From Candidatus Nealsonbacteria bacterium (GTDB lineage Bacteria > Patescibacteriota > Minisyncoccia > Minisyncoccales > CAZKCU01): DNA of 64,000 bases. The stretch's first letter is position 1, and the number at the start of each line of letters is the position of its first letter. The notes below the pieces were generated by a model that made no database searches, was not told the origin of the DNA, and saw nothing but the letters and a program-made list of their open reading frames with translations. Below are positions 10,808 through 50,402 of this stretch, in pieces. The DNA lies in contig CP179888.1 of the NCBI GenBank assembly GCA_047456305.1, positions 253,307-317,306 on the forward strand, read 5' to 3'. The translations under genes and the position numbers were made by a program.

Positions 10808-10811
10808 CATT

Positions 10812-11456: not shown

Positions 11457-11459
11457 CTG

Positions 11460-11481
11460 AGCACATAATACTTTATGTGCT
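11460..11481. repeat. AGCACATAA/TTATGTGCT palindrome family, copy 1
   Basis: agcacataa-tact-ttatgtgct lies between the VirB4-N-like gene and virB4. Confidence 0.8.
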
Positions 11482-11498
11482 TCGGTTAAATTTTATTA

Positions 11499-13304: not shown

Positions 13305-13321
13305 AGAAAATGTAATAAATT

Positions 13322-13762
13322 ATGGATGAATACGAAGTAAATGAGGGAGGAGCTCTGGCAGCTCCTAAAGGAGAGGTTTCGGGAGAAATTGAAGCCTTAG
13401 AGGAAGCAACAAAAAAAGTAGGAGCTCTTTTTAGCCCCGAAGGAATTATAATGCTCTCGATGGCGCTTTTAGTTGATGGCGGTGAGCTTTTGTTCGAGTT
13501 TATTCCCGGAGCTGGACAAATTATTTCAATCGCAATTGATATTTTTGCTGTTCTTTTTTTTGGCTTTTGGATGTGGTTTTTTCGCTCGAAAAGGGCAAAA
13601 ATTACTCCTAAAGCTGCAGTTAGCAGAGCTAAAGTATTACAATGGGGAAAAAGAATGAAATGGCTAAGGCCCTTATGTTTTCTTATTGAATTAATCCCAA
13701 TAGGTAGTAGTTTTCTTCCTTTCTGGATTTTAATAGTTTATCTTGAATTAGTTTATGAATAA
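13322..13762 (+). CDS. Small integral membrane protein (T4SS-locus associated)
   Basis: 146 aa with an acidic N-terminus and 3-4 TM helices. Overlaps the next gene by 8 nt. Confidence 0.55.
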   Translation: MDEYEVNEGGALAAPKGEVSGEIEALEEATKKVGALFSPEGIIMLSMALLVDGGELLFEFIPGAGQIISIAIDIFAVLFFGFWMWFFRSKRAKITPKAAVSRAKVLQWGKRMKWLRPLCFLIELIPIGSSFLPFWILIVYLELVYE

Positions 13763-15314
13763 AAAACAAAAGTTTTTTTTCTTTTTTCTTTTTTTTCTTT
13801 TTTTTATCTTTTGGGCTCATTTTGTTTTGGCAATTGAATTCCGGGCACCGGAAATAAATTATCCTTCTCTTCCTTTCCCTGGGGTTGATTCTCCCCAGGT
13901 TTTTCTTGAAGAAATTAAAGAAGGTAAAATCCCCGGAGAACAGGCTTTTCCTCTCTATGTTAAGTATTTCTATTATCTATTCTTAACGATTGCAGGTTTG
14001 TTGGCTCTTGGGACAATAATTTATGGCGGTTTTCTTTATTTAATTTCAGCTGGCGCCCCGGTTAAAATGATTGCTGCCAGAGAGCAAATTACCGGAGGGA
14101 TTTTAGGGCTGGTTATTCTACTTTCTTCTTATCTAATTTTGGCCACTATCAACCCCCAGCTGACAATCCTTCGGCTTCCCGGCTTAGAAAAAATTACCCT
14201 ACCAGAGATAGAGCTTCCTGAACCTGGTGAAAAAAAACTTCCAACCTATTTCCAGATTCCCCTCGGAATGATTATTGAAAAGACGGTTCTAAACGAAGAA
14301 GCGCAGGAAAAATTAGATTATATCTACCAAACAACAGAAGAGGCAGCAAAAGCGGCAGAAGAGTTATATGAGCTAAGCGAAGAAATATATTCTTTGGTTA
14401 TGAGCGCTGATTGCGGTAATTCAAGATGTCGTGATATCGACTGCTCACCATTTGGATGTACCGGAAAAGACAATCAATCTCAAATAAACACCGTAATAAA
14501 AGAAATACCTCTGGCAATTAAAGATTTAGAAGAAAAAACAAACGAGATATCAATTGCAAAAATCCTTTTAATTAATGACCTTTCTCAATTAGAAGCAGCC
14601 GGGCTTTTAATGAGTTTAGCTTCTGGAGTGTTTGAATATGGTACTCGATTAAATATCGAGTCTTTTCAGGAAATTGAAATTACTTCTTTCCCTGATTGGG
14701 AAGATATTGATATTAAGATGAATGATAAGATAGCTAAAGACCCAGTTACATTTTACTTAGACAAAGAAAGAAATGAACAAGAAATCTATCTCGCCTCAGT
14801 GCTTCGCTTGGCAGGAGACGCTGGTCTTCCGCCTGAGCCTTTGGGAGGTTGGCCAGAACCCCCTCCAGCCGAACCTGGTAAATTACAATGGCCGACTGCA
14901 ACAACAGAAGTAACAAGTGAATTTGGATGGCGCATTCATCCCATATATGGAGTACTAATGTTCCATAACGGTATCGATATTGGGGCGTCCTATGAACCAG
15001 TTTATGCAACTGCTGATGGAACAGTAATTTTTGCAGGGCTGCTTGGTGGATATGGTTATCTTGTAGTTATTAAACACGACGAGCTCGCAACTTTATATGC
15101 TCATTTAAGTAAATACTCTATCTCTGTCAAACGAGGAGATGGAGTGGAAGCTGGCCAACGAATTGCACTAAGCGGCAATACTGGTACAAGTACTGGTCCT
15201 CACCTTCATTTTGAAGTCCGCCATGATCCTTATGATTTAGCTAAGGACTTTTATACATATTCTCTTCTTCGACCTTTAAATCCATTAGGCTATTTGTCAA
15301 AGATAGAATATTAA
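13755..15314 (+). CDS. T4SS-pilin-like (TrbC/VirB2-type) N-domain fused to a Cys-motif linker and a C-terminal M23 metallopeptidase
   Basis: Signal peptide; pilin-like hairpin YVKYFYYLFLTIAGLLALGTIIYGGFLYLISAGAP...GILGLVILLSSYLILATINPQL. M23 motifs HNGIDIG, YAHLS and GNTGTSTGPHLHFEV. Confidence 0.8.
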   Translation: MNKKQKFFFFFLFFLFFIFWAHFVLAIEFRAPEINYPSLPFPGVDSPQVFLEEIKEGKIPGEQAFPLYVKYFYYLFLTIAGLLALGTIIYGGFLYLISAGAPVKMIAAREQITGGILGLVILLSSYLILATINPQLTILRLPGLEKITLPEIELPEPGEKKLPTYFQIPLGMIIEKTVLNEEAQEKLDYIYQTTEEAAKAAEELYELSEEIYSLVMSADCGNSRCRDIDCSPFGCTGKDNQSQINTVIKEIPLAIKDLEEKTNEISIAKILLINDLSQLEAAGLLMSLASGVFEYGTRLNIESFQEIEITSFPDWEDIDIKMNDKIAKDPVTFYLDKERNEQEIYLASVLRLAGDAGLPPEPLGGWPEPPPAEPGKLQWPTATTEVTSEFGWRIHPIYGVLMFHNGIDIGASYEPVYATADGTVIFAGLLGGYGYLVVIKHDELATLYAHLSKYSISVKRGDGVEAGQRIALSGNTGTSTGPHLHFEVRHDPYDLAKDFYTYSLLRPLNPLGYLSKIEY

Positions 15315-15335
15315 TCAAAAGCTGCTAACCAAAAT

Positions 15336-16223
15336 ATGAAAAGATTATTTTTTAAAAAAAACTTAATTTTAAAAACTTTTCTCCTTCTGTTTTTATTTAT
15401 TTCTCTTTTCTTATTTTCGAATTTCTTTTATAATCAAAGTAAGGGAATTTTAGCAGTAGAAGAGACCGAGGAAGTAGAAGAGGCCGAGGAAGAAGAAAAG
15501 GGAAGACTACTCTGCGGAAAGGAAATTCCGGTTGGAGAAGCAATGGAGAAAACCGGGGAATTGTTGGAAGAAATAACAAGGGAACTTGAAAAAATTGAAT
15601 CAAATTCTTATTTTCTCATTAAAACTCAAGAAGACATGGAAGAACTGGCTAAAAATTGCACTATGGAAAACTGTACACCCAAATGTGAAGCTATTACTAT
15701 AAAAGGTGCTACTGTTGCGTGTATTCACAAACCTTGCCAGGGTGACCCTTGCGAAGAAAGAGAAAAAATAGAAAAATTATTTGAGAAAATTACTCGTCTT
15801 AATAAAGAAATTCAGGAAGGTAAAGATAAAATATATAAATTAATTTATAAAAGCGTAGAGCCTCTTTGCATAGAAGGAAATGAAGATATCAGAACTCCTG
15901 GGGAAAAAATTCTATGTGCTACTAATCCAGCTTGTTGGGAATTGACACGGGAAACGCTTCTATCTCTTTTGCCGGAAGATTTCTTAGAAAAAATAGGGCT
16001 CTGCCCAAGCATAACAGTCCAAAAAGCTATAAGCAGAAAATTAAATCTATCAAGGGGTGAATTTGAGAAATGCTATGTGCCGGCAGCTGAGTTAGAAAAG
16101 ATTGGGAAAATATTACTCAATTGCGATACAGTTATGAGCCAAAACCTGCCCCGAGAAACAAAAACAGAAGAAAAAGGAATACCTGTCTGCACCAGTTTGC
16201 ACAATTGGTTTTGTTGCTACTAA
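15336..16223 (+). CDS. Secreted Cys-rich coiled-coil protein
   Basis: N-terminal signal/TM segment, acidic stretch and 18 Cys. The motif NCTMENCTPKCE...CIHKPCQGDPC resembles SADCGNSRCRDIDCSPFGCTG in the middle of the preceding protein. Confidence 0.6.
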   Translation: MKRLFFKKNLILKTFLLLFLFISLFLFSNFFYNQSKGILAVEETEEVEEAEEEEKGRLLCGKEIPVGEAMEKTGELLEEITRELEKIESNSYFLIKTQEDMEELAKNCTMENCTPKCEAITIKGATVACIHKPCQGDPCEEREKIEKLFEKITRLNKEIQEGKDKIYKLIYKSVEPLCIEGNEDIRTPGEKILCATNPACWELTRETLLSLLPEDFLEKIGLCPSITVQKAISRKLNLSRGEFEKCYVPAAELEKIGKILLNCDTVMSQNLPRETKTEEKGIPVCTSLHNWFCCY

Positions 16224-16228
16224 AAAAT

Positions 16229-17332
16229 ATGTCAAATCTTAAAAAAAACGTTTTTGCTCTAATTTTCATCACTTCTTTTGTTTTATTTTTGGGAAGTTCT
16301 CTTTTTATTCAAGCAGCCGAAGAAGAAAGACCACTTGAAATCGAATATCCAGAAATTGGTGAATGGCGGCCAGAAACAGTAGAACAAGCTGTTCTTCCAG
16401 AATACATAAAATATATCTTTAATTTCGCCGTCGCAATTGCCGGCTTAGTTGCTTTTGGGGCCTTAGTTTATGGTGGGTTTCGTTATATAACCTCAGTTGG
16501 CGCGCCAATTGTCCAGACAGAGGCTAAAGACCAAATTTTTGCCGGCATTATAGGGCTTGTTATTTTACTTTCTTCTTATTTAATCTTAACTACTGTTAAT
16601 CCCCAATTAGTAATCTTGACTTTGGAAAAACCTGAATGGCCAGAACTTCCAACTGATTTGCCAGGAGTTTACCTTACTTACCTTATTGACGGAGAGGATG
16701 TAGTAAAATCTTATACTCAAAATGCATCTTCTTTGGATATGCCTAGTGATAGAATGACAGACGTCAAAATAGTCAATCCAATTGATTATGACTATGAAAC
16801 AGAAGAGAAAAAACCGGGAAAATACTACTATGGGGCAATCCTTTTCCCACAGACCGTCTATATAGGAGAACCGCCTGAAATTTGTCGTAGTATAATCCCT
16901 GGGGAAGTGGTAGAAGAGTGGACTTGTCGAATTTCTAAAAAAGCTGCTTCACTGGTTGTCTTTCGAGAAGTTGAAAAAACTGATGGCGAAGTCACACTTT
17001 GTACAGGGACAGAAGGGACAGGAGATTATTGTCACACCTGGGGTTTCACCCGGGATGGGGCGACGGACAACGAGTGGAAGGGATTAGAAAAGCTATCCAA
17101 AAAGGTTTGGTCAATTAAGATTGAAGGAAATTATTTGTTAATTCTTAAGGGTGTGGTCGAAGGTGCGTGGTATACTCGTGATACGGTATACCTCGCACGC
17201 TTTCAAGGCCCGGGTGAATGGCCGGACCTCACAAAATATACAATAAATCAATGTGGTCATCGGTCCTGGAATTTTTGGCATTACTACCAGGACTCTTGTG
17301 CCACCGAGTATATGATTATCCCAACGTATTAA
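16229..17332 (+). CDS. T4SS-pilin-like N-domain protein with a Cys-containing C-terminal beta-rich domain
   Basis: Start moved to ATG 16229 (MSNLKKN...). The N-domain YIKYIFNFAVAIAGLVAFGALVYGGFRYITSVGAP...GIIGLVILLSSYLILTTVNPQL is paralogous to the N-domain of 13755..15314. Confidence 0.75.
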   Translation: MSNLKKNVFALIFITSFVLFLGSSLFIQAAEEERPLEIEYPEIGEWRPETVEQAVLPEYIKYIFNFAVAIAGLVAFGALVYGGFRYITSVGAPIVQTEAKDQIFAGIIGLVILLSSYLILTTVNPQLVILTLEKPEWPELPTDLPGVYLTYLIDGEDVVKSYTQNASSLDMPSDRMTDVKIVNPIDYDYETEEKKPGKYYYGAILFPQTVYIGEPPEICRSIIPGEVVEEWTCRISKKAASLVVFREVEKTDGEVTLCTGTEGTGDYCHTWGFTRDGATDNEWKGLEKLSKKVWSIKIEGNYLLILKGVVEGAWYTRDTVYLARFQGPGEWPDLTKYTINQCGHRSWNFWHYYQDSCATEYMIIPTY

Positions 17333-17425: not shown

Positions 17426-17887
17426 TTAGGGATATGGTCTCACTACCACTCTTCTTTCTGGTTCTTGACCTATGCTTTCTGTCGTAACATTAGTTCTTGC
17501 CGCTAACTCCAAATGAATAATCCTTCTTTCATAGGCTGGCATTGAAGGAAGCTGTTTTTCTTTTTTTGACAGGGCTACCTCGTCAGCAGCAGCTCTTGCC
17601 ATTTCTTTTAAATAGTCAATTTTTTTCTTTTTATAATCTGAAATATCAAGGTCAATAAAAAAAGGTTCTTCAATTTGTCTTTTTAATATTGCCTTTAAAA
17701 GATGCTGGATTTCAGTTAGGGTCTGACCTCTTTCTCCGATTAAAATCTGAGGCTCTGAAGTCTTTATATTTATGGGAATGGTTTGGTCTTTCTGGGGCAA
17801 AATTTTAATTTCTACTTCAAAAGTCATCTTTTTAAAAAACTCTTCAACAGTTTCTTTAATTTTTTTAAGGCTATTTTGATTAAGCAT
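17426..17887 (-). CDS. jag: Jag/KhpB-type RNA-binding protein (KH + R3H)
   Basis: KH-like ILIGERGQTLTEIQHLLK and R3H-like ERRIIHLELA...TESIGQEPERRVVV. Located downstream of yidC. Confidence 0.85.
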   Translation of the reverse strand: MLNQNSLKKIKETVEEFFKKMTFEVEIKILPQKDQTIPINIKTSEPQILIGERGQTLTEIQHLLKAILKRQIEEPFFIDLDISDYKKKKIDYLKEMARAAADEVALSKKEKQLPSMPAYERRIIHLELAARTNVTTESIGQEPERRVVVRPYP

Positions 17888-18632
17888 GGTGTTTGAAAGT
17901 AATATATTGTTGGACTATTGAGAATAATGCGACCACTAACCAATAAAGGGCGACTGCTGCTGGAAACCGCCAAAGAATAAAAACTGTGAAAATTGGAAAG
18001 AAATAAAGCATCTGTTTTTGCATCATTTGAGAAAAATCGGACGAGCCTTTTTTTACTGATTTTTGCTTTGGCGTTACCATTTTTGTCTGAAAAAATTGAG
18101 CGATTCCAGCTCCAATTATTATCGCTATATTCGGCCAAAGCAAATGAGAAATTCCATTTACTTTAACAACAGCCGATTGAGTAAGATTTGTTATCCCTAA
18201 AAAAGTAGTATCAATCTGCCCGGGGTTGGGAACAAAGCTGTATAAAAAACTAAGCTGGTTTTCCCCAAATCCTCTCCAAAAAAGTCGGTAAAGAGCGATT
18301 AAAATTGGGAGCTGAACAATCAATGGTAAACATCCTGAGAAAGGATTAATCTTTTCTTTCTTATAAAGTTCCATTGTGGCCCTGGCCTGTTTTTCTTTAT
18401 CGTTTTTAAATTTTTCCTGAATTTCCTTTATTTTGGGCTGAAGATTAGAAAGTGCTTTTTGGGATTTAGCTCCTTTGGTTCCTAAAGGATAAAGAATAAT
18501 CTTAATTAAAATTGTTAAAGCAATAACTGCTATCCCAAAATCATGCCCCGGTAAATATTGATAGAGCAAAATCAGGGCATTAAATAAAGGCTGGTATAAT
18601 ATTACGTTAAAGGCGTTAATAAATAAATCCAT
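17880..18632 (-). CDS. yidC: Membrane protein insertase YidC (short, Gram-positive/Oxa1-like form)
   Basis: 250 aa. Motifs LQPKIKEIQEKFKNDKEKQ...ELYKKEKINPFSGCLPLIVQLPI. Sits in the rnpA-yidD-yidC-jag synteny. Confidence 0.9.
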   Translation of the reverse strand: MDLFINAFNVILYQPLFNALILLYQYLPGHDFGIAVIALTILIKIILYPLGTKGAKSQKALSNLQPKIKEIQEKFKNDKEKQARATMELYKKEKINPFSGCLPLIVQLPILIALYRLFWRGFGENQLSFLYSFVPNPGQIDTTFLGITNLTQSAVVKVNGISHLLWPNIAIIIGAGIAQFFQTKMVTPKQKSVKKGSSDFSQMMQKQMLYFFPIFTVFILWRFPAAVALYWLVVALFSIVQQYITFKHHA

Positions 18633-18648
18633 TTTTATTTATGGTTCA

Positions 18649-18704
18649 CCCCGTTAAATAATTCCGCTTTCAGCGGAATTGCTGCAAAGCAGCATTTAAC
18701 GGGG
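18649..18704. repeat. Nested three-way hairpin element, copy A
   Basis: 11-bp outer stem ccccgttaaat/atttaacgggg encloses the hairpins aattccgc-tttca-gcggaatt and gctgc-aaa-gcagc. Contains the yidD stop codon. Confidence 0.85.
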
Positions 18705-18908
18705 TAAATCTACTCCCCCAGGATTCCAAGGGTGACACTTTAATATCCTCTTTATTCCTTTTTTGGTGCCTATTACCGGGCCGTATCTCTTAATAGTTTG
18801 GTAGGTGTATTCTGAGCAACTGGGATAAAAACGGCATCTTTTACCAAAGTTTGGCGAAATAAAAATTTGATAAAATTTAATAATTTTTAAAATTATTTTT
18901 CCGAACAT
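18696..18908 (-). CDS. yidD: Membrane protein insertion efficiency factor YidD
   Basis: FYQIFISP...[19 protein letters not shown]...[17 protein letters not shown] 18908 preferred over the TTG at 18929. Confidence 0.9.
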
Positions 18909-18917
18909 TTTTATCGG

Positions 18918-18939
18918 AGCACATAACAATTTATGTACT
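18918..18939. repeat. AGCACATAA/TTATGTGCT palindrome family, copy 2
   Basis: agcacataa-caat-ttatgtact lies between rnpA and yidD. Confidence 0.75.
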
Positions 18940-18943
18940 CGAT

Positions 18944-19282
18944 TTAGATTATTTTTGCTTTTTTAAAAAGCTTATTTACTATTTCCTTAATTTCCTGAAA
19001 ATCCTTGGTTTCCAATCCTGGCCTGGCTATTACTACTCCGTCTATCCCTTTTTTAATTTCATTTAGTTTTATTCTGACTGACTCTCTTAATCTTCTTTTT
19101 ATTTTGTTGCGTAAGGTAGCTTTTTTAAAGAAAGTTTTACTAACCACAAAACCAAAACGGCTACTCTTTAGATTATTTTTTACTTTTTTTAGAACCAAAA
19201 AATCTTCTTTAAATCCTTTTCCCTCTTTAAAAACTTTTTCAAAATCTTTGTTTTTTTTTAGTCGGTTTTCTTTAAACAACAT
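18944..19282 (-). CDS. rnpA: Ribonuclease P protein component
   Basis: 112-aa basic protein with [16 protein letters not shown]...[22 protein letters not shown], directly downstream of rpmH. Confidence 0.88.
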
Positions 19283-20385: not shown

Positions 20386-21270
20386 TTAAATTAATCTGGT
20401 AATTAGAAATCCAATTATCAAAAATAAGGCAATAGGCGGTAGGGCAGGGATAGGTCTTCGGATTTTTTGGCTGGCAAATATCCAAAAACTGAAAAAAAGA
20501 CCAAATAGGGCAAATAGGGCGACAATTAGAGAATTTAAAATTCCTTCAGAAACTAAAGAGGTACAAAGAAGTAAAGGAAAAGCTATGTCTCCTCCGCCTA
20601 AAATTAAGAATTTTCCTCCGGGTTTAACTGTTTTAAGATTTTCTTTAAAGTCAGAAATTTTGGAAGGAACAATTAAAGCTAAAATGGCTCGACTTTCAAT
20701 CATTTCTTTTGCCATCTTTATCATATGTTTGGTGATATTCACTGCGATGAAGTCATAAATTGAAAGGATTATTAAAAGAGCGACCACTATCAAGGGCTCA
20801 AGTCTTAACCCTAAAATGCTACCTACTCCAGCAATTCCGAAAATAATGCAAAGATTGTGAACCAAAATTGTTGGTCTCTTTAACCACCAAAATATTAAAA
20901 TTCCTGCCAAAAATAAAGCGAAAATGTCTAAAATCCATAAACTAAGCAAAAGCGCGCTTCCCCAGAAAACTACTAAAATAAAGATTCCCTTAAATAATAT
21001 TCCTCTTCCTTTTTTAAATTTCCCGAAAAAAGAAACAAGTAAAATTAAGGAAGTGGTTAAGAGAAAATAAAGAAGAAAGTGCCAAAGGGAAATAGCAGGC
21101 AAAGAGATCTCTTGAATTTCTGAGATTCTATTAATTTTGAAGCTAGCTATAATTCCTAAAACTAAAGTCAAAGAAAACAAAAAAGCCTCGAAGAAAAAAA
21201 TTCTCCAAGGGCTTTGAAGAAAGGTGAATTTTATTTCCCCCGGCTCTTTATTTTGATTGTTTTTTGACAT
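20386..21270 (-). CDS. Presenilin / signal-peptide-peptidase-like intramembrane aspartyl protease (A22 family)
   Basis: About 9 TM helices with all three signature motifs in order: YD (LSIYDFIAV), GxGD (LILGGGDIAFP) and PAL (RPIPALPPIAL). Confidence 0.75.
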   Translation of the reverse strand: MSKNNQNKEPGEIKFTFLQSPWRIFFFEAFLFSLTLVLGIIASFKINRISEIQEISLPAISLWHFLLYFLLTTSLILLVSFFGKFKKGRGILFKGIFILVVFWGSALLLSLWILDIFALFLAGILIFWWLKRPTILVHNLCIIFGIAGVGSILGLRLEPLIVVALLIILSIYDFIAVNITKHMIKMAKEMIESRAILALIVPSKISDFKENLKTVKPGGKFLILGGGDIAFPLLLCTSLVSEGILNSLIVALFALFGLFFSFWIFASQKIRRPIPALPPIALFLIIGFLITRLI

Positions 21271-21343: not shown

Positions 21344-22531
21344 TCATACTAATTTGAGTAATTCTTTTACTTTATCTTTCTTTTCCCAGGTAAATTCCGA
21401 CTCTTCCCTGCCAAAATGACCATAACAGGCGGTTTTTCGATAGATGGGCCGCAAAAGATTAAGCTGTTTAATTATTCCGCTTGGTGATAAATCAAAAATT
21501 TTGGGAATAATTTTAACTAATTTTTCTTCAGAAACTTTTCCTGTTCCGAAAGTATCTACACTTACCTCTGTTGGCTTTGTTCCTCCAATGACATAAGACA
21601 GTCTAACTTGGCATTTTTCAGCTAAATTTGCTGCCACAATATTTTTGGCAATATAGCGAGCCATATAGGCTCCTGACCTGTCAACCTTTGTCGAGTCTTT
21701 CCCGCTAAAAGAGCCACCGCCAATAGGAATTTGGGGGCCGTAAGCGTCAACAACATTTTTTCTCCCTGACATACCAGTATCAGAGACCGGTCCCCCAATG
21801 ACAAAGCGACCGGTGTTATTAATATAAATTTTTGTTTTTTTGTCTAATAAATTCTTGTCTACCCAAATTTTTCTATTAAAAATTTGGGCAGATGAACAAA
21901 CAGGTTTAATTACTCTTTTAATAATATCTCTTTTAATTCGATTTAAAGAGACATCGGATTCATGCTGAGCGGCAATTACCACATTGTCCAATCTTTTTGG
22001 TCGGCTATTTTCATATTCTATAGTAACCTGAGATTTTCCATCCGGTCTTAAATAAGGTAAAATTTTCTTTTTTCTAATTTCAGCCAGCCTCATGACCAAT
22101 TTATGAGCTAAGATAATTGGCAAAGGCATCAATTCTGGAGTTTCGTTACAGGCATAACCTACCGAACTACCTTGGTCGCCAGCCCCTTGTTTTTTAGTTC
22201 CGGTTCTTCTCACTCCTCTGGCAATATCAGGCGATTGTCCGTGAATAGTATTAAAAACTCCTACTGTCTTATAATCAAAGCCGTATTCTGGCTTATCATA
22301 GCCAATATCTTTGATTACCTCTCTGGCTAAATTATTCACGTCAACCCAAGTTTTAGTAGTAATTTCTCCGCCAACTATTACATAGCCATTGCCAACCATA
22401 ACCTCACAAGCCACCCGGCCATATTTATCATCCTTTAAAACTGCATCCAAAACAGTGTCAGCAATTTGATCTGCGACTTTGTCGGCGTGTCCAATGGCAA
22501 CTGATTCTGAAGTGAGAAAATATTTTTTCAT
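21344..22531 (-). CDS. metK: S-adenosylmethionine synthetase
   Basis: [20 protein letters not shown]-like N-terminus, [26 protein letters not shown]. 395 aa. Confidence 0.95.
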
Positions 22532-22593
22532 ATTTGAGTTATTTTATCATTTTATTTAAAAGTTTCAACCAGTCTTCTTTGAGCTCCAAGCCT

Positions 22594-23745
22594 TTACAAA
22601 AAAGGCGAAGGGTGAAAAGAAGTTAACCTTCTTTGAGCTTCAATTTTTTCTCGATTTGAAATTTTACTTTTTTGGATACCCTTCTTTATGAAATTTAGCA
22701 ATTTATCGTAGCATCTACGATCTACGAATTCCGGAGTTCCATCTTTCCCCCCGAACGCCCACGAGTATCTGGCTGGATCTTCATAAGAAGGTTTAGCTCC
22801 GTAAATTATTTCGCTGACTAGAGAAAGAGCCCGAATTGTTTTAGGACCTACACCTTTTAATGATAAAAGTTGTTCAAAATTTTTTGGCTCTTGAGATTTG
22901 GCAAAAAAGATGGTTTTTTCAAGCCGTTTCAAGTCAAATTTTTCTTTTTCTATGGGATGATGGTAAAATTCTACATCTTTTAATTCCATTTCGGTGAATC
23001 CTGCCATTCTTTTCTGCCTCATTAGAGAATTAGATTTTTCATTAATCAATTTAATATCTTTTAAAAATGTTTTTGGTTCCTTAGTTACCAATCCAGTTGA
23101 AATTTCTTTATTTTCTCTACTTTCTTTAGCAGTCAGATTTAAAGGTTTAACTTCAACATCAGAAATAATCCCTGAATGGGGTTCTTCAATAAAATCTTTG
23201 ACTTTAGAAGATAACCAGTGATATCTTCGAGCTTTTTGAAGACCTGTGTTCATTCCCTGTTGGACAATAGTATACTGGCCAGACTTTGAGAAAATTAAAT
23301 TATGATGATAGATAGAGAAATTATCCTGAATTAAAGCCGAGTCGACTTTGGCTGATATTTTGCTGGCGTAAATCATTTTGTCGATTTTCTCTATTGGCCA
23401 TCCTAAAAACTCTCCCCAATCCTGAATTTGCTGAGGAGTTTTTCTTGAAGTTTTTCCTTTCCCCCCGCAGATAAAAAGACCAAGGTCTGATTCTAAACCT
23501 CTTAATCCTTCTTTAAGAGCGCCCATTACTGTAGTAGTCAAGCCCGACGAATTCCAGTCAAATGCTAAAACACATCCAAAAGATTGAAACCAAACTGGAT
23601 CCGAAAGACGTTTCAAAAATTCCTCGGTTCCGAATTCCTCAACAATAGCTAAAACAATACCCCGCGACAATCTTTTCATCCTTTCAAATAGCCAATAGGG
23701 GCATCTTCCATAATCTAAGGGAACTGTGGCAATACCTGTTCGCAT
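22594..23745 (-). CDS. DUF763-family protein (archaeal-type, HhH-containing)
   Basis: MRTGIATVPLDYGRCPYWLFERMKRLSRGIV...FQSFGCVLAFDWNSSGLTTTV and HhH LKGVGPKTIRAL. Assigned from memory of the family pattern. Confidence 0.6.
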   Translation of the reverse strand: MRTGIATVPLDYGRCPYWLFERMKRLSRGIVLAIVEEFGTEEFLKRLSDPVWFQSFGCVLAFDWNSSGLTTTVMGALKEGLRGLESDLGLFICGGKGKTSRKTPQQIQDWGEFLGWPIEKIDKMIYASKISAKVDSALIQDNFSIYHHNLIFSKSGQYTIVQQGMNTGLQKARRYHWLSSKVKDFIEEPHSGIISDVEVKPLNLTAKESRENKEISTGLVTKEPKTFLKDIKLINEKSNSLMRQKRMAGFTEMELKDVEFYHHPIEKEKFDLKRLEKTIFFAKSQEPKNFEQLLSLKGVGPKTIRALSLVSEIIYGAKPSYEDPARYSWAFGGKDGTPEFVDRRCYDKLLNFIKKGIQKSKISNREKIEAQRRLTSFHPSPFL

Positions 23746-23809
23746 TATTTAATTTTATCAAAAAACCGGCTTTTGAGCCAGTTCCTATTTAGTATTATTT
23801 TTGTAAAAT

Positions 23810-24793
23810 TTATTTTTTAACTCTAGAAATTCTAATTAAACCTGAACAAGGAATAATCTCTATTCCTTTCTTTTCAAGTTCATCTAAAAATAGATTTACT
23901 CCCAAAGAATCGCTGCTCATATGGCCGGCAATTACTACATTGATGTTCGCACTTTCGGCTTCCTTCCGATGTTCTTCTGATTGATGCATTCCAATTATCG
24001 TACCGATTCCCGCTTGAGCCATTTTTTCATAAAGTTTTGGCGAGCCCTCAGTGCCACCAGTAATTTCAGTAAGGGCGATTTTACCACAGCGGTTTTCTTT
24101 ATCTCCCACAAAAATCTTAGGACCGGCCCCAATTTTAAGAGCCTCTTTATACTCTGGAATTTCTTTTAATAAATCCATTAAATCGTCAATCCTTTCTGGT
24201 TTTTCTTTTTCGATTAAATTTTTTAGAAATTTTGCTGCTAAATTGTCACAGGGGGTGTGAGAATTCATTAAATTCACTTTCAATAATTTAGCAGTATCAA
24301 CCGTTCTTTGATGGTTTAATTTATTCACTCCCCTGGACACTTCATCAATTCTTTCTTTCATCAACCCTTCGGCAATATTTATTGGGACTCCATAAAAATT
24401 TAAAACATCACATTGTAAATCCATCACATCTGCTAAATGAGCTAATCCCCTACCAAGAGGATGGTGAGAAATAATTAAGTCAATATCGCCAATTTCTTTA
24501 GCCAATAAAATCTCAGCTGGAGCAATATCAATGCCAATTAAAACTTTTTTAATTTCTTTGTCTTCAGCAATATTTAAAATTCTTGAATCTAAATAAGGAT
24601 TTTCTAAAGCTTCTTTGTCAAATTCTTCTTTCTCCTTATCCTCCAGTTTTTCATATTTTTCCCTTTTTCTTTCTAAAAACTTCTCTACTCCTTCTTTTCC
24701 TCTGAAATCTGCTTCAATCCCCATTTCTATAGCTAAGTTGTAAATCTCATTTATTTTCATTAGAATTTGTCCTTTCTCTCCCTTCTCCCACAT
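23810..24793 (-). CDS. Nif3/YbgI-family dinuclear-metal-centre protein
   Basis: DLIISHHPL motif, C-terminal VIAGHMSSD. An alternative start is ATG 24760 (MKINEIY...). Confidence 0.7.
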   Translation of the reverse strand: MWEKGEKGQILMKINEIYNLAIEMGIEADFRGKEGVEKFLERKREKYEKLEDKEKEEFDKEALENPYLDSRILNIAEDKEIKKVLIGIDIAPAEILLAKEIGDIDLIISHHPLGRGLAHLADVMDLQCDVLNFYGVPINIAEGLMKERIDEVSRGVNKLNHQRTVDTAKLLKVNLMNSHTPCDNLAAKFLKNLIEKEKPERIDDLMDLLKEIPEYKEALKIGAGPKIFVGDKENRCGKIALTEITGGTEGSPKLYEKMAQAGIGTIIGMHQSEEHRKEAESANINVVIAGHMSSDSLGVNLFLDELEKKGIEIIPCSGLIRISRVKK

Positions 24794-24965
24794 CAGACGC
24801 GGGAGAAGAAAAAGCAGGAGCGAGTTTTACTTTTTTAAAAAATTTTTGATATAATTCCTGAATTTGTTTTTCTTGTTCCTTTATGTCAAAAACTTCCCGG
24901 CGAATCCGAGCCTTTTCTTTGCGAATAAATTTCCTTAGGCTTTTGGGAAGTCTTCTCTTTACCAT
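24747..24965 (-). CDS. Small basic hypothetical protein
   Basis: 72-aa ORF MVKRRLPKSLRKFIRKEKARIRREVF.... Its 3' end overlaps the Nif3 start region. No family recognised. Confidence 0.35.
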   Translation of the reverse strand: MVKRRLPKSLRKFIRKEKARIRREVFDIKEQEKQIQELYQKFFKKVKLAPAFSSPASDVGEGRERTNSNENK

Positions 24966-25045
24966 AAATAAAAAACCACTTAAAAAGAATTAACATAATA
25001 TTTTGTATCTTAACTTAATTTAATTATTTTTTCAAGCAAAACTAC

Positions 25046-26482
25046 CTACTCTCCTTTAATTACAGCCAAGGGAACTAATTTTGCCACTTTTCTTGAGAGT
25101 CCAGCATTGTGAACTACTTCTACAACCTCATTAACATCTTTGTAAGCCAAGGGCGCTTCTTCAGCAATTCCTCGTATTGACCGGCACTTCACTAAAATCC
25201 CTTTTTCTTTTAATCTTCTAATCACCTCTTCTCCTCTAACCGCTCTCATTGCTGCATGTCGGGACATTGCCCTTCCGGCGCCGTGAGCTACGGTATGCCA
25301 AGCTTCTTTTGATTCTTCAATACCAGCTAAAACATACGAGGGAGTTCCCATTGAGCCAGGCAGGATAGCAGGTTGACCGGTTTCTCTATATTTCTCTGGA
25401 ATCTCAGGATGTCCTGGCGGAAAAGCTCTTGTTGCTCCCTTCCGATGAACTATTAATTTCATTTTTTTGCCATCAACCTCGTGTTCCTCAACTTTAGCAA
25501 TATTATGGGCAACATCGTAAAGTAATTTAAGTCCTCCCTTTCCCAAGACTGACTGCCAAACTTTTCTAATATAGTGGGTAATCATATGTTTATTCGACCA
25601 AGAATAGTTTGCCCCAGCACACATTGCCTTAAAATATCTTTGACCTTCTGAAGAATTGAATGGAACGCAGGCTAATTCTCTGTCTGGTAATTTTATTCTA
25701 TACTTTAACATAGCTTGCATCATTATTCTTATGTAATCGGTAGCAATTTGATGGCCAAGTCCACGAGACCCACAATGGACCATTACTACTATTTGGTCTT
25801 TAAATAGACCGAAAACTTCGGCTATCTTTTCATCAAAAACCTCTTCAATTTTTTCAATGCTACAAAAATGATTCCCACTCCCCAAAGTCCCAACTTGATC
25901 TCTTCCTCTCATTTTTGCTCGTTCTGAAACACAAGAAGCATCAGCTTCAATCATTCTCCCTTTCTCTTCGCAATTTTCAATATCCTCCTTCTCGCCATAC
26001 CCTTTTTCTACTAAATAAGGAACTCCTCCTTCTAAAATCTTATCTATTTCTTCAATTGAAAGTTTTATTTTTCTTCCTCGACCCAAACCCGAGGGAACCT
26101 CTCCCTGAATCTCAGTAGCTAATTTCTCTAAATAAGGTTTAATTTCTTTCTCAGTATATTCTGATTTTAATAATCTAATAGAGCACGAAATATCATAACC
26201 CACTCCGCCGGGTGATATTACCCCCTCAGGATATCTTGTAGCTGCTACCCCGCCGATAACAAAACCATAGCCGGTATGAGCATCGGGCATAGCTAAAGAA
26301 TATTTTACAATTCCCGGCAATGAAGCAACATTGATGATTTGCTTTATTGCGTCAGGTTCTATTTTTTCTAATAGTTTTCCTGAAACATAAAGTCTTGCCG
26401 GGACTCGCATATCAGCTCTGAAAGATTTCGGTATCTCCCATAAATAATCAGTTATTTTTTTGAAATCTTTTTTAGAAACCAT
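25046..26482 (-). CDS. rtcB: RNA-splicing ligase RtcB (3'-phosphate/5'-OH RNA ligase)
   Basis: PDAHTGYGF, GYDISC, GSGNHF, HCGSRGLGHQ, HRKGAT, PGSMGTPSY, HGAGR. 478 aa. Confidence 0.95.
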   Translation of the reverse strand: MVSKKDFKKITDYLWEIPKSFRADMRVPARLYVSGKLLEKIEPDAIKQIINVASLPGIVKYSLAMPDAHTGYGFVIGGVAATRYPEGVISPGGVGYDISCSIRLLKSEYTEKEIKPYLEKLATEIQGEVPSGLGRGRKIKLSIEEIDKILEGGVPYLVEKGYGEKEDIENCEEKGRMIEADASCVSERAKMRGRDQVGTLGSGNHFCSIEKIEEVFDEKIAEVFGLFKDQIVVMVHCGSRGLGHQIATDYIRIMMQAMLKYRIKLPDRELACVPFNSSEGQRYFKAMCAGANYSWSNKHMITHYIRKVWQSVLGKGGLKLLYDVAHNIAKVEEHEVDGKKMKLIVHRKGATRAFPPGHPEIPEKYRETGQPAILPGSMGTPSYVLAGIEESKEAWHTVAHGAGRAMSRHAAMRAVRGEEVIRRLKEKGILVKCRSIRGIAEEAPLAYKDVNEVVEVVHNAGLSRKVAKLVPLAVIKGE

Positions 26483-26505
26483 TCACTTAAAATTAATTAA
26501 AAATC

Positions 26506-27126
26506 CTAAAAAGAGGAAAATTTTAGAATTGTTTTAATGAAATATTGATGAACTCTAAGGTCATCTGTTAACTCGGGATGGAAAGTCAGGGCTAAAATAT
26601 TGTTTTTCTTTACTCCGATTATTTCATTTTTATATCTAACCCAAATTTTAGTCTCTCCCCAAACTTTTTCTATCGCTGGTGCTCGAATGAAAACTGTTCG
26701 GAAAGATTTACTACCGAGCTCTGGTATTTTGACATCAACCTCAAAAGAATTAACCTGCCGGCCATAAGCATTTCTCAAAACTTCCATTTCCATCAAACCC
26801 AACAAAATTGTGCCAGTTCGTTTAACTTGTTCATCTCCTTTTTTTGCCAATAAAATAGTACCAGCGCAGGTTCCCAAAATTGGCAACTCTTCTTTGGCCA
26901 GCTTTATTATTTTCTCTCGGATTCCGATTTTGAGCATCAATCTATTTATAGTCGTTGATTCTCCGCCTGGTATCACTAAGCCAAGAATATCGTTCAAGTC
27001 TTCTCTTTTTCTCACTATTACAACTTCTCCTTCAAGACCGAGTTTTTTCATTGCCTTTTCCAAAGCTTCAACATGCTCTGAAACCGCACCCTGTAAAGCC
27101 AAAACTCCTATTTTTAATCTCTTCAT
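26506..27126 (-). CDS. pdxT: Pyridoxal 5'-phosphate synthase glutaminase subunit
   Basis: [18 protein letters not shown] (catalytic Cys), FHPEL. Overlaps pdxS by 4 nt. Confidence 0.92.
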
Positions 27127-28028
27127 GTGCTCCGAATTTGCATCAATTGATCCTTTGTTAGCGTTTTTATATCCAAGCTTGGCATTGCTTCTCCTAATCC
27201 TTTTGAAACTTCAGCTATCAATTTCGGATCGTCGTAGTGCAAAGTAGCTTCAACTATTACCTTGGCATATTTTGCCGGGTTTGAACTCTTAAATATTCCT
27301 GAGCCAACAAATATGCCATCGGCACCCATTTGCATCATTAGAGCAGCATCAGCCGGGGTGGCAATGCCACCAGCCGCAAAATTAACTACTGGCAACCTTC
27401 CTAATCTTCTTATTTCTTTAACCAATTTAAACGGAATCCGATATTCTTTGGCCTTTTTCTTAAGATGACCCTCTGACATTTTTTTCAAAGCTCCAATTTC
27501 TCTCTTTATCAGTTTCATATGTCTTACTGCCTCAACAACATTCCCCGTTCCAGGCTCTCCCTTTGTTCTGATCATAGCTGCTCCTTCATTTATTCTTCGT
27601 AGGGCTTCGCCTAAATTTCTTGCCCCGCAAACAAAGGGGGTAATAAATTTTCTTTTCTCGATGTGTTCCTCTTCGTCAGCCGGGGTCAAAACCTCGCTTT
27701 CATCAACCATATCCACACCCAAAGCCTGGAGAATTTGGGCTTCAGCAAAATGGCCAATTCGACATTTGGCCATAACCGGAATTGTTACTATCTCCATTAT
27801 TTCTTGGATCTTTTCTGGATCAGCCATTCTGGCCACCCCACCTCTTATCCTAATGTCAGATGGAACAGCTTCCAAAGCCATAACCGCCACTGCCCCGGCT
27901 TTTTCAGCTATCTTTGCCTGCTCAGCATTAATAACATCCATTATCACCCCACTTTTTTGCATTTTGGCAAAGCCCCTTTTTAGTCTCTCTGTTCCTCTAT
28001 TCTCAATAATTCTTTTAGTTATTTTCAT
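27123..28028 (-). CDS. pdxS: Pyridoxal 5'-phosphate synthase lyase subunit
   Basis: [62 protein letters not shown]. Confidence 0.95.
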
Positions 28029-28159
28029 AAAATATTATTTATGGGCAATAAATTGCTAATAGTCGGCTTTTAATATACCTATAATAACAAAAATTTTGAA
28101 TAAGAACAAGTTTTTAAAAATATCTTCTTTTTAATCTTACTTTAATTTTCCCTAAGAAT

Positions 28160-28187
28160 AAAAGCCCCGTAAAATACGAGGCTTTTT
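28160..28187 (-). terminator. Hairpin terminator after the GH130 gene
   Basis: aaagccccg-taaaata-cgaggcttttt lies immediately 3' of the stop on the minus strand. Confidence 0.5.
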
Positions 28188-28190
28188 AAA

Positions 28191-29141
28191 TTAATATTCG
28201 GTACATTTCTCCAGGTACTCAAGAACATCGTCTAAATTAGCAATGGCTAGCGCTACCACTGAATCCGCAGCTCCATAATAAACTAAAAGTTCATTTGTTT
28301 TTTCATCAACAACCGCGCCGCAGGGAAAAACAACATCGTCTACATCACCCACTCTTTCGTAACTCTCTTTCGGACCAAAGACCCAATCTCGACTCCGGCG
28401 AATCACCTCAAGACTTTCTAAATCCAATAAAACCAGGCCAACTCGATAAATAGTACCTGAGGATGTATTTCTCCCCCCATGGTAAATAATCAACCAACCT
28501 TCTGGAGTTTCAATCGGCGGTGGACCTAACCCCACTCTGTGAGAATCCCAAGCTCTTTGTCTAGTAGAAATTAGCATCCTGTCTTTCCCCCAAAAATTCA
28601 GGTCTTTAGAAAAAGAAACCCAAATATCAGCCCTTCTATTAACAATAGGTCTGTTTATAAGGGCATAGTATCCTTTAATAGTTTTAGGGAATAAAGAAGC
28701 ATCTTTATTTGGAGGTATTAACTGATGCCCTAAACGTTTAAAATTAGAGAAATCTTTAGTTGCTATCAAAGAAATACCAGGAGGTTCTCCAACCACCTCA
28801 TTAAAGAAAGAAACGCAGGTAATTATATATTCTTGCCGTTCTTCCACCCAAACAATCCTCGGATCTTCTAATCCAAATGCCGCTTCGCCAAAATCTGATT
28901 CTGCCACTAATACTGGTTCGTGACTTATCCGCCAATTTGTTTTGCCGTCTTTACTTTTAGCAATTGTCAAATGGGAATATCCTTGTTTATCTTCAACCCG
29001 TACCAAAAGCAATATCTCATCATTAAATTTTATTGCGCCAGGATTAAAAACTGATGCCGCCCCATAGGGCCAATTTTCTGAAGTTAGAATCGGGTTTTCT
29101 TCATATCGCCTGAAAATCTCCTCAAATTTTCCTTTACTCAT
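28191..29141 (-). CDS. GH130-family glycoside phosphorylase/hydrolase (DUF377-type beta-propeller)
   Basis: NPGA, LEDPRIVWV, YYGAADSVVALA. A strong AAGGAGGG lies 5 nt upstream of the ATG. Confidence 0.75.
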   Translation of the reverse strand: MSKGKFEEIFRRYEENPILTSENWPYGAASVFNPGAIKFNDEILLLVRVEDKQGYSHLTIAKSKDGKTNWRISHEPVLVAESDFGEAAFGLEDPRIVWVEERQEYIITCVSFFNEVVGEPPGISLIATKDFSNFKRLGHQLIPPNKDASLFPKTIKGYYALINRPIVNRRADIWVSFSKDLNFWGKDRMLISTRQRAWDSHRVGLGPPPIETPEGWLIIYHGGRNTSSGTIYRVGLVLLDLESLEVIRRSRDWVFGPKESYERVGDVDDVVFPCGAVVDEKTNELLVYYGAADSVVALAIANLDDVLEYLEKCTEY

Positions 29142-29228
29142 TTCTTCCCTCCTTTTTTAATTTTTAGTTTTTAAATAACTACTATATTTCTACATTATCA
29201 TACTTTTATTTTTTTACAATCCTATATT

Positions 29229-29253
29229 AAAAACCCGCCAAAGCGGGATTTTG
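29229..29253 (-). terminator. Rho-independent terminator after archease
   Basis: Minus strand reads aaaatCCCGCtttgGCGGGttttt. Confidence 0.7.
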
Positions 29254-29288
29254 TTCTTAGAATAATTAAATGCTTTAAACTTATATAT

Positions 29289-29693
29289 TTAAATGTCAAA
29301 CAAAACGGTAGTTTGCCAGGTGCCATCTTTTTTTTGATGGATGTCTAAACTATGGTATGTGACGGCTTTGATGTCTTCGCCAAAGCTTTCTACTTTTTGG
29401 CCAACGAGTTCTGCTTTGAGTCCGGTATCAATGAATTTTTTAAAATTTACCTCGCTGTAAACTTCTTTATTAACTTGCGTTAAATATAGAACCTCGCTTA
29501 AAAAATCAACTAAAAGAGAAGACAACTCAGGAGAGCTTATTTTAATTTCTCTTTTTACTTTTCCTGGTAAAATTTCTGGTCTTTGGTTTTCTGTCATCGC
29601 TAAGAGCATATTTAAAAAAAGCTCTTCTTTATTTTTCCCAAAAGCTCTAATTTTTAAATCAGCTTTATGCTCTAAAATCTCGAATTTTTTCAT
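29289..29693 (-). CDS. Archease (RtcB activator/chaperone)
   Basis: FEILEHKADLKIRAFGKNKEELF...AVTYHSLDI. 134 aa. Overlaps the upstream Mur-ligase gene by 4 nt. Confidence 0.85.
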   Translation of the reverse strand: MKKFEILEHKADLKIRAFGKNKEELFLNMLLAMTENQRPEILPGKVKREIKISSPELSSLLVDFLSEVLYLTQVNKEVYSEVNFKKFIDTGLKAELVGQKVESFGEDIKAVTYHSLDIHQKKDGTWQTTVLFDI

Positions 29694-30895
29694 AAATTGA
29701 TTTTTTTAAATTCTTCTCGAACAACTGTCCTATCATCCCACGGTATTTTTTTACCCCCTTTTACACAAATCCAGGGTTCACAACCCTTACCAGTGATAAC
29801 CACTATATCATTTGTTTTGGCTAATTCCAGCGATTTTCTAATCGCCTCTCTTCTATCTAATATTTTTATTGCCATTTCTCTAGTCCCATCAGCAACTTGA
29901 TTTATAATTTCCATTGGGTCTTCGTCATAAGGGTCCTCATTAGTAACAATTACTTCCTGACAATATTTGGCGGCTATTTTTCCTAAAACCGGCCTTTTCC
30001 ATTTATCTCGGCCTCCTCCACAAGCACCGAGCACACAAATTAGTTTAGTAGTTTGTAGTTTGTAGTTAGTAGTTAGGGTTTGATAAACTTTTTCTAAAGC
30101 ATTGGGGGTAAAAGCGTAATCCACAAATATCTTAAAGGGGCTTGAAATCACCTCTTCCATTCTTCCGGGAATGCCGCCAGCTGCCTCTAATACTTTTTTA
30201 CAAATCTCTAAATTAATCCCCTGGGACAAGCCAACGCAAGTTGCGGCTAATGCATTATAAATATTAAAATCACCTATCAACCGAAGTTTAAATTGGATAT
30301 CTTTGTTATTAATATCTCCTTTATTTAATCCGTAGCTATATTTTTTCTTTGCTGGAAATCTCAAAAAATATTCCCTGTTTTCATCGTCTAAGTTTATAAT
30401 ATGAACCCCTTTGGTTATTTTAAAAAGTTTTCCTTTAGCGGCTCGATAATTTTCGAAGCTACCGTGAGTTTCAATGTGTTCTGGACTTAAATTTGTAAAA
30501 ACTGCTACCTCAAAATCAATGAATTTATGCCGGTACTGCTTTATTCCTTCAGACGTCACTTCCAAAACTACATACTTACACCCAGAGTTTAGTGCCTGCC
30601 TTAAAAATCTCTGAAGTTTGAAACGGCCGGGCATTGTCATCTTTAAAGTATTTGGCCACTCTTTTCCACCTATTTTAAATTTAATCGAAGATAAAGAAGC
30701 AACCTTGCATCCAGCTGCTACTAAAATTTTTGATGCCAATTCAACAACCGTTGATTTTCCATTGGTTCCGGTAACTCCAATAACAATTAATTTTCGCGAG
30801 GGAAATCTGTAAATTATTGCTCCTAAAAAAGCTAATAAAAAATGATACCAGTCCAACAGAAAAGAAGGAATAAACTTTTTAATTAAATCTTTCAT
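29690..30895 (-). CDS. Mur ligase family protein (MurE-like, lacking the N-terminal domain)
   Basis: GVTGTNGKST, LEVTSEG, DYAFTPNALEKV, GACGGGRDKWKRP. Confidence 0.7.
   Translation of the reverse strand: MKDLIKKFIPSFLLDWYHFLLAFLGAIIYRFPSRKLIVIGVTGTNGKSTVVELASKILVAAGCKVASLSSIKFKIGGKEWPNTLKMTMPGRFKLQRFLRQALNSGCKYVVLEVTSEGIKQYRHKFIDFEVAVFTNLSPEHIETHGSFENYRAAKGKLFKITKGVHIINLDDENREYFLRFPAKKKYSYGLNKGDINNKDIQFKLRLIGDFNIYNALAATCVGLSQGINLEICKKVLEAAGGIPGRMEEVISSPFKIFVDYAFTPNALEKVYQTLTTNYKLQTTKLICVLGACGGGRDKWKRPVLGKIAAKYCQEVIVTNEDPYDEDPMEIINQVADGTREMAIKILDRREAIRKSLELAKTNDIVVITGKGCEPWICVKGGKKIPWDDRTVVREEFKKINL
30038..30085. repeat. Heptamer-type AAACTAY tandem tract inside the Mur-ligase CDS
   Basis: The coding-strand (minus) reading is aactactaactacaaactacaaactactaaactaattt. 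It resembles the uvrB tract at 32672. Confidence 0.6.
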
Positions 30896-50197: not shown

Positions 50198-50255
50198 TAT
50201 AGTTATAGGTAATGGGTAAAACTATTTTTTTAAATAGATTAGTCAAAAGAAAACT

Positions 50256-50342
50256 AGTGGAAAACGAGCAAAGAAGTAGTTAATTAATTAGGGATAATAA
50301 AAAGAAGAAAAGAAAAAGAAATTTTTAAAGAGATTTTCCACT
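50256..50342. promoter_or_regulatory. Inverted pair of DnaA-box-like 9-mers TTTTCCACT in the dnaA-dnaN spacer
   Basis: agtggaaaa at 50256..50264 and ttttccact at 50334..50342, plus tttttcaca at 50357..50365. The spacer is AT-rich. Confidence 0.4.
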
Positions 50343-50402
50343 TTTAATACCATGCCTTTTTCACAAATTGACCAAGGAAATTTTTAGCAAAAGGGTAAAA
50401 AC

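Follow-up and report, generated by a model that had tools for sequence, protein, structure and literature searches.

Does a membrane protein encoded on a small bacterial genome belong to the presenilin family and, if so, is it likely to act as an intramembrane protease? Presenilin is a membrane-embedded protease linked to Alzheimer's disease. In papers on intramembrane proteolysis, the prokaryotic presenilin homologues are treated as archaeal, and type IV prepilin peptidases are given as the GxGD proteases of prokaryotes (PMC2947513, PMC9282858, PMC9263693). The initial annotation of this DNA had likewise described the characterised prokaryotic members as archaeal, in agreement with the literature (PMC2947513, PMC9282858). 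Our literature searches combining presenilin with Patescibacteria yielded only papers on the mouse gut microbiota, those with Parcubacteria or the candidate phyla radiation (CPR) gave no paper with presenilin, and PF06550, DUF1119 and "bacterial presenilin" were nowhere mentioned in the literature searched. The bacterial occurrence therein seems to be undiscussed and unstudied, so that the literature lags modestly, but genuinely, behind the annotation in databases.

Family assignment of the gene

The gene lies within a 64-kb stretch of a Candidatus Nealsonbacteria contig (hereafter the window, to which all coordinates refer), where it is the sole ORF of its interval:

20386..21270, minus strand: coding sequence of a predicted presenilin/SPP-family (PSH-type) intramembrane aspartyl protease, 294 aa, ATG start

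The ORF list, the translation and the helix prediction agree with the earlier description of a 294-residue protein with YD, GxGD and PAL motifs in this order and in a hydrophobic context. On the minus strand, SIYDFIAV translates to residues 170-177, with the GAC codon of D173 at 20754-20752, and LGGGDIAFP to residues 224-232, with the GAC codon of D228 at 20589-20587. The order is YD (D173), GGGD (D228) and PALPP (275-279), within a setting of hydrophobic helices. As judged from the sequence, the motif set and the family matches described below are far above chance expectation. With dN/dS values of 0.44, 0.30 and 0.16 against three orthologues, the gene, as estimated from these comparisons, evolves under purifying selection.

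In the HMM search, PF06550 ("SPP", signal-peptide peptidase/presenilin aspartyl protease) matches the protein with 59.2 bits against a gathering cut-off of 23.9 (E 6.2e-16), residues 33-293 covering profile positions 7-279 of 283. Since this is the sole Pfam match at E<=0.1, a transporter or another unrelated family is excluded, and the earlier presenilin/SPP call is upheld. Eukaryotic-type models had also been suggested as a check. Here the outcome is divided: PF06550 matches, while neither PF04258 (Peptidase_A22B, eukaryotic SPP/SPPL) nor PF01080 (presenilin proper) does at E<=0.1, so that the link to those two families is by fold only. PF01478 (Peptidase_A24, type IV prepilin peptidase) shows no match at E<=0.1 and no structural match either, and a prepilin peptidase is therefore excluded. 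In MEROPS terms, we take presenilin/SPP to be A22, with presenilin as A22A and SPP/SPPL as A22B, and the type IV prepilin peptidases to be A24.

The only NCBIfam match is the archaeal PSH equivalog NF041679, at 78 bits under a cut-off of 125. The protein is therefore a family member rather than an archaeal PSH equivalog, and a score below the cut-off does not guarantee the same function as archaeal PSH. Methanoculleus marisnigri PSH (4HYC family) is also the sole significant match in a PDB sequence search (E 5e-11); a profile of 26 aligned sequences again retrieves PSH alone (E 1.6e-19) and does not recover PS1. A BLASTP comparison with full-length PSH yields 34% identity along 161 C-terminal residues, and the alignment pairs D173 with D162, D228 with D220, GGGD with GMGD and PALPP with AGLPP, the TKHM after TM6 being common to both proteins. 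Together with the predicted fold described below, every line that can be followed in silico places the protein in the prokaryotic branch of the presenilin/SPP superfamily.

An exact-sequence look-up identified GenBank XOB42042.1 as identical, under the name [quoted passage not shown]. It is encoded on a 639,534-bp Nealsonbacteria contig, where the DUF763 neighbour is XOB42044.1; the size of this contig bears out the reduced genome that had been supposed from the window. The gene is thus already known: its GenBank annotation is correct and its family is common. As NCBI already names the exact protein correctly, we do not present it as a discovery, and the generic NCBI name "presenilin family intramembrane aspartyl protease" is the best label for it.

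Predicted fold, orientation and function

An AlphaFold2 model was built from the 26-sequence alignment, and its helices were assigned by DSSP. The mean pLDDT is 84.4 and the pTM 0.84, with values below 50 only at the first 15 residues and in loop 83-87. The model contains nine long hydrophobic helices, at residues 21-52, 62-82, 89-110, 115-131, 135-156, 159-180, 226-238, 244-267 and 277-293. The elements around the putative active site are as follows:

20731..20796, minus strand: TM6, residues 159-180, a DSSP helix of mean KD hydropathy 2.26, with the YD motif and D173, the candidate for catalytic Asp-1
20596..20730, minus strand: predicted cytoplasmic TM6-TM7 loop, residues 181-225 (DSSP), with the invariant TKHM and 9 Lys+Arg
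20557..20595, minus strand: TM7, residues 226-238 (DSSP), opening with G225-G226-G227-D228; D228 is the candidate for catalytic Asp-2
20434..20448, minus strand: PALPP, residues 275-279, inside the invariant PIPALPPI and directly before TM9; aligned with AGLPP of PSH
20392..20442, minus strand: TM9, residues 277-293, a DSSP helix; the C-terminus is predicted outside the cell from positive-inside counts

In this predicted nine-TM protein, D173 lies in TM6 and D228 at the start of TM7, so the two aspartates are located in adjacent membrane helices, as had been expected. The loop between them contains an amphipathic helix (182-192), equivalent to TM6a, and short β-strands at 198-201 and 222-225 (DSSP).

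A Foldseek search against the PDB returned PSH at the top (4Y6K, 4HYG, 4HYC), with a probability of 1.00 and a target-normalised TM-score of 0.70. Human SPPL2a (9K92) came after it, followed by presenilin-1 in complexes of γ-secretase with substrate or inhibitor (6IDF_B, 6IYC_B and others), both also at a probability of 1.00. Among the matches at E < 1, there was no chain other than PSH, SPPL2a and PS1.

Conservation is concentrated at the same elements. Y172, D173, T180-M183, G225-D228 and P273-I280 are invariant in 26 homologues at 56-84% identity, as are the loop residues I196, P202, F221, L222 and L224 in the aligned set, and all 80 genome-encoded relatives keep YD, GxGD and PAL at identities down to about 33%. 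Such strict invariance is the pattern expected for catalysis. As presenilins have also been credited with non-proteolytic roles, the protein could be imagined as a scaffold without protease activity, or as an ion-leak channel, in which the presenilin fold was retained. However, the two aspartates, the GxGD glycines and the PAL motif are without exception in all 26 aligned homologues and all 80 genome-encoded relatives, and we regard a dead enzyme as very unlikely.

The orientation in the membrane can be estimated from the distribution of basic residues. The successive loops of the Nealsonbacteria protein contain 4, 0, 3, 0, 1, 0, 9, 0 and 3 Lys+Arg, the TM6-TM7 loop with its nine being somewhat above the family mean of 7.4. 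Averaged across the 26 aligned homologues, 17.4 basic residues fall on the N-terminal side versus 1.3 on the opposite side. These positive-inside counts lead to a predicted topology of nine transmembrane helices, N-in/C-out, with a basic cytoplasmic TM6-TM7 loop, and they contradict the N-out/C-in alternative. N-in/C-out is the orientation of presenilin, and that of eukaryotic SPP is the opposite.

Taking together the HMM assignment, the PSH match, the fold, the invariant motifs, the dN/dS values and the positive-inside counts, we consider it highly probable that the gene product is functional and acts on its own as an intramembrane aspartyl protease of the GxGD type, belonging to the presenilin/SPP family (A22) and, within it, to the prokaryotic PSH type. 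In vitro, archaeal PSH is promiscuous. An archaeal homologue has proteolytic activity without cofactors, and it is for the archaeal homologue only that Asp-dependent intramembrane cleavage of a transmembrane substrate has been demonstrated (PMC2947513, PMC9282858); the physiological substrates of the archaeal enzyme are not established (PMC2947513).

By analogy with M. marisnigri PSH and γ-secretase (4HYG, 6IDF, 6IYC), a single-pass transmembrane helix would be admitted laterally and unwound against the TM6a helix and the short strands flanking the TM6-TM7 loop. D173 and D228 would then activate a water molecule held between them, and the helix would be cut inside the bilayer, presumably with no need for cofactor subunits. 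If the rule drawn from the eukaryotic enzymes applies, the presenilin-type orientation leads one to expect single-pass N-out/C-in substrates, i.e. type I stubs, rather than signal peptides, which argues against a literal reading of the Pfam label. As the cell has very few other proteases, the likely role would be to clear or release fragments of membrane proteins.

Eukaryotic SPP, with its orientation opposite to that of presenilin, handles N-in/C-out signal peptides. A narrower form of the above reading is that the protein is specifically the signal-peptide peptidase of the cell, clearing the signal-peptide remnants that signal peptidase leaves in the membrane and replacing SppA or RseP in a reduced genome. 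This would fit the Pfam family name of PF06550, "Signal-peptide peptidase", and the proposal of haloarchaeal homologues as SPP candidates (PMC8305020). It would also fit the ORFs of the window, among which there is no SppA, S2P or rhomboid, although these 64 kb are only part of a genome of roughly 640 kb. A further point is yidC, situated 2 kb downstream of the protease; however, this neighbourhood is not conserved, being present only at the loci L001 and L002. Since the predicted N-in/C-out orientation is that of presenilin, a dedicated signal-peptide peptidase seems unlikely to us, and the broader assignment as a presenilin/SPP-type protease is retained.

Gene neighbourhood, distribution and origin

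Upstream of the protease, a series of genes is found on the same strand (Pfam assignments):

21344..22531, minus strand: metK, the next gene upstream of the protease
22594..23745, minus strand: DUF763 gene
23810..24793, minus strand: NIF3-like gene
25046..26482, minus strand: RtcB gene
26506..28028, minus strand: PdxS/PdxT genes
28191..29141, minus strand: GH130 gene
29289..29693, minus strand: archease gene
29690..30895, minus strand: Mur ligase gene, at the far end of the upstream block (21344..30895)

The reported adjacency to metK is therefore correct. The gaps between NIF3, DUF763, metK and the protease measure 62-73 bp, and the scan gave no terminator-like site between metK and the protease; across the window, the promoter/terminator scan gave nothing above shuffled expectation. 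The protease is possibly co-transcribed with the block.

Synteny was evaluated by tblastn of the window proteins against 80 related loci. The Mur ligase gene was found at 34 of these, archease at 16, RtcB at 32, NIF3 at 43, DUF763 at 29 and metK at 13. Gene order and strand are constant across the related loci, with the protease as the last gene and variable genes downstream. A functional link to metK was considered and rejected: as metK is found at only 13 of the 80 loci and belongs there to a collinear series that extends much further, its adjacency is incidental. A specific pairing of NIF3 with the protease was considered as well and then given less weight. Although NIF3 often abuts the protease gene, the whole Mur-archease-RtcB-NIF3 segment is collinear, and the pair is absent at archaeal PSH and at the archaeal and Chloroflexota members of the family. 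The neighbours of the Mur-to-metK block, including NIF3, DUF763 and metK, are absent around the PSH of Methanoculleus chikugoensis and around L076, L077 and P0430. From these comparisons, we read the block as a gene order kept in a lineage that rearranges little, not as functional coupling.

Downstream and on the same strand follow a SpoU methyltransferase gene, tRNA-Arg, rnpA, yidD, yidC and jag. Elsewhere in the window are dnaA, dnaN, a class A PBP (PBP1), TyrRS, UvrB, holA, Fpg and a Mur ligase. The bacterial nature of the host, which had been proposed from the window, is borne out by rnpA, yidC, dnaA, dnaN, PBP1, UvrB and the Mur ligase.

Relatives of the protein are numerous. A first homologue search gave 746 matches; the best 120 of these all carry PF06550 and, where names are given, they are called "presenilin family intramembrane aspartyl protease" and come from Patescibacteria or Paceibacterales. 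A profile search of 1.84 billion representatives at 50% identity gave 1447 matches at E<=1e-3 and 260 at E<=1e-30. Two conserved peptides, FLILGGGD[IV] and PIPALPPIA, were also used to scan GTDB, each species being represented by one genome; this gave 88 relatives, nearly all from Parcubacteria-type CPR bacteria. The hosts include Paceibacter normanii, Nealsonbacteria (with a complete 689-kb chromosome, L020), Staskawiczbacteria, Uhrbacteria and many MAGs. Homologues with all three motifs are encoded in at least 80 species genomes, and the exceptions to the Parcubacteria-type CPR hosts are one Chloroflexota and some DPANN-like archaea. The presenilin-type protease is thus a widespread family of Parcubacteria, not a rare copy. 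A separate homologue search from a mixed alignment returned mostly Methanoculleus, with little additional taxonomic breadth.

The neighbouring genes identify the hosts of the exceptions. L077 ("Pacearchaeota") comes from a true archaeon, its neighbours being archaeal/eukaryotic uS2, exosome Rrp42 and RNase J, and its relative P0430 is located on a 202-kb archaeal contig with PolD DP1/DP2, Cdc6 and LonB. L076 ("Chloroflexota") is a non-CPR bacterium, with F0F1 ATP synthase genes nearby. The characterised relatives and some of the related loci (L077, P0430) are archaeal, and the window contains the "archaeal-flavoured" RtcB, archease and DUF763 genes; this could suggest that the gene is archaeal and entered a bacterial contig by mis-assembly or mis-binning. 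However, bacterial genes stand on both sides on one strand (rnpA, yidD and yidC downstream; Mur ligase, UvrB, dnaN and dnaA further along), and the GC content is even along the window, so that contamination is not a serious option. In addition, over 40 independent assemblies have the same collinear arrangement, among them the complete 689-kb chromosome, and the identical protein is encoded on the 639-kb contig. Archaeal contamination is hardly credible, and we treat the gene as that of a bacterium.

The origin of the family was approached with a neighbour-joining tree without support values, rooted on Methanomicrobiales PSH as the only outgroup. The CPR, DPANN-like and Chloroflexota members form one clade on a long branch, apart from Methanomicrobiales PSH. 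Archaeal members are among its deep branches, and the Nealsonbacteria protein groups with L001, L002, L007 and L016. At the level of these sequences, the tree shows the CPR proteins as a subfamily that is distinct from characterised PSH and common to DPANN-like archaea; it does not give the direction of any transfer. The mixed clade and its long branch would fit inheritance as well as transfer. Of the earlier proposal that archaeal-type proteolysis had been retained, the presenilin/SPP type stands, and "retained" is no more than one possibility, given the clade with DPANN-like archaea and Chloroflexota on a long branch.

A more far-reaching joint reading is that the clade with PIPALPP is a presenilin subfamily exchanged horizontally between the ultra-small CPR and DPANN episymbionts, perhaps as their sole intramembrane protease with a specific role, and perhaps co-expressed as the last gene of the Mur-archease-RtcB-NIF3-DUF763-metK block. 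The role might be the processing of surface or attachment proteins, or the clearing of all transmembrane stubs and signal peptides. If true, the protein would give bacteria their first presenilin model and would mark gene exchange between CPR and DPANN; as a whole, we consider this combination rather improbable.

For the assignment as a presenilin/SPP-type protease, the significance is more modest. On this assignment, true presenilin-type enzymes belong to the regular gene set of many Parcubacteria with genomes of 0.6-0.7 Mb, which raises the question of which targets they have where membrane proteins are so few. Any practical value would lie solely in biochemistry, with a small cofactor-free bacterial presenilin as a further model enzyme, or in a careful CPR-DPANN phylogeny.

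Comparison with known intramembrane and membrane aspartyl proteases

The type IV prepilin peptidases and FlaK resemble the Nealsonbacteria protein as polytopic membrane aspartyl proteases with GxGD. Their catalytic aspartates are located in soluble regions and cleavage takes place outside the membrane (PMC2947513), whereas the Asp pair of the Nealsonbacteria protein lies inside predicted TM helices; as noted, Peptidase_A24 is not matched.

With SPP/SPPL2a (9K92; PF04258), the protein shares the fold (Foldseek E 3e-4, TMq 0.61), the stand-alone character and the same three motifs, but it differs in giving no PF04258 match and in its predicted orientation, which is opposite to that of SPP. Human presenilin-1 in γ-secretase (6IDF, 6IYC) is similar in fold (Foldseek probability 1.00, TMq about 0.6), in the N-in/C-out orientation predicted here, in the cytoplasmic TM6-TM7 loop and in the YD, GxGD and PALP motifs. 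In contrast, there is no match at the sequence level, either with PF01080 or in the PDB profile search, the Nealsonbacteria loop is short, and there is no sign of autoproteolysis or of cofactor subunits. No nicastrin-, APH-1- or PEN-2-like gene adjoins the protease in the window.

The closest counterpart is PSH/MCMJR1 of Methanoculleus marisnigri (4HYC, 4HYG, 4Y6K; NF041679). The differences are considerable: only 34% identity over the C-terminal 161 residues and 78 bits against the equivalog cut-off of 125, PAL (as in presenilin) in place of AGL, a bacterial host with a position in a separate long-branch clade, and NIF3, DUF763 and metK as neighbours, which are absent near Methanoculleus PSH. 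Nevertheless, the two proteins are alike in length (294 versus 301 aa), in the predicted nine-TM fold, and in the order of YD in TM6 followed by TKHM, GxGD in TM7 and xxLPP before TM9. PSH is also the best structural match (TMt 0.70) and, like the Nealsonbacteria protein, a single-gene protease.

Conserved gene order upstream of the protease

The genes upstream of the presenilin-family protease (PSH) form a block running in the order Mur ligase, archease, (GH130, PdxS/PdxT), RtcB, NIF3-like protein, DUF763 protein, metK and PSH (21344-30895, minus strand). Both the order and the strand are kept in dozens of Parcubacteria genomes (loci L001-L074, one genome per GTDB species), with DUF763 and metK as optional inserts, and the PSH proteins of the genomes sharing this collinear block are just 40-60% identical.

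22594-23745, minus strand, protein with a DUF763 domain (417 bits) and a helix-hairpin-helix motif
23810-24793, minus strand, NIF3-like protein
25046-26482, minus strand, RtcB
29289-29693, minus strand, archease
57556-58659, RNA 3'-phosphate cyclase RtcA, outside this block

The NIF3-like protein shows 58-91% identity across these Parcubacteria genomes, a conservation far above that of the adjoining protease. Its matches to the family models are weak and partial, reaching 39 bits over residues 194-309 only with the Pfam NIF3 model and 33.6 bits with TIGR00486, for which the cut-off is 130, and an exact-sequence look-up did not find the window's sequence in the protein collection. The protein is a divergent form belonging to the candidate phyla radiation (CPR) and is probably essential. 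The DUF763 protein is 61-77% identical among Parcubacteria, and a literature search found barely any mention of this domain.

As a separate observation, RtcB, archease and RtcA make up a complete RNA repair and ligation set in a genome of ~640 kb.

Distribution of the PIPALPP clade

A Chloroflexota MAG and DPANN-like archaeal contigs (loci L076, L077 and L083) also encode members of the PIPALPP clade, the presenilin subfamily of the window's protease named after its PAL-motif stretch, and the neighbouring genes there are unrelated. Therefore, the family is not limited to CPR bacteria.

Other coding features and the origin-associated genes

41-2434, plus strand, 797-aa ORF
10388-17332, plus strand, type IV secretion-like cluster
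54222-56720, plus strand, 832-aa ORF, TIGR00375-family protein with an intein

A Pfam search with the 797-aa ORF returned nothing. Its ~540 residues of coiled-coil-like repeats, extremely rich in Glu, Lys and Arg, are followed by a Pro-rich linker, one TM helix and a C-terminal domain of ~200 aa. Since the ORF encodes these repeats, the first 2 kb of the window show a strong purine skew (GC skew 0.37, AT skew 0.51).

The secretion-like cluster comprises genes for a PrgI-family protein, a VirB4/TraG-type P-loop ATPase, an M23 peptidase and a T4SS pilin-domain protein, and a LysM-CHAP hydrolase (4404-5399) is encoded nearby. The intein that splits the TIGR00375-family protein bears a LAGLIDADG homing-endonuclease domain; from its sequence, we take the host protein to be a PHP-domain, EndoQ-like one.

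The cumulative GC skew is lowest near 40-42 kb. At bacterial origins, dnaA-dnaN usually occurs together with the rnpA-yidD-yidC-jag cluster; in the window, dnaA-dnaN (49067-51752) is separated from rnpA-yidD-yidC-jag (17426-19282) by ~30 kb, both being on the minus strand.
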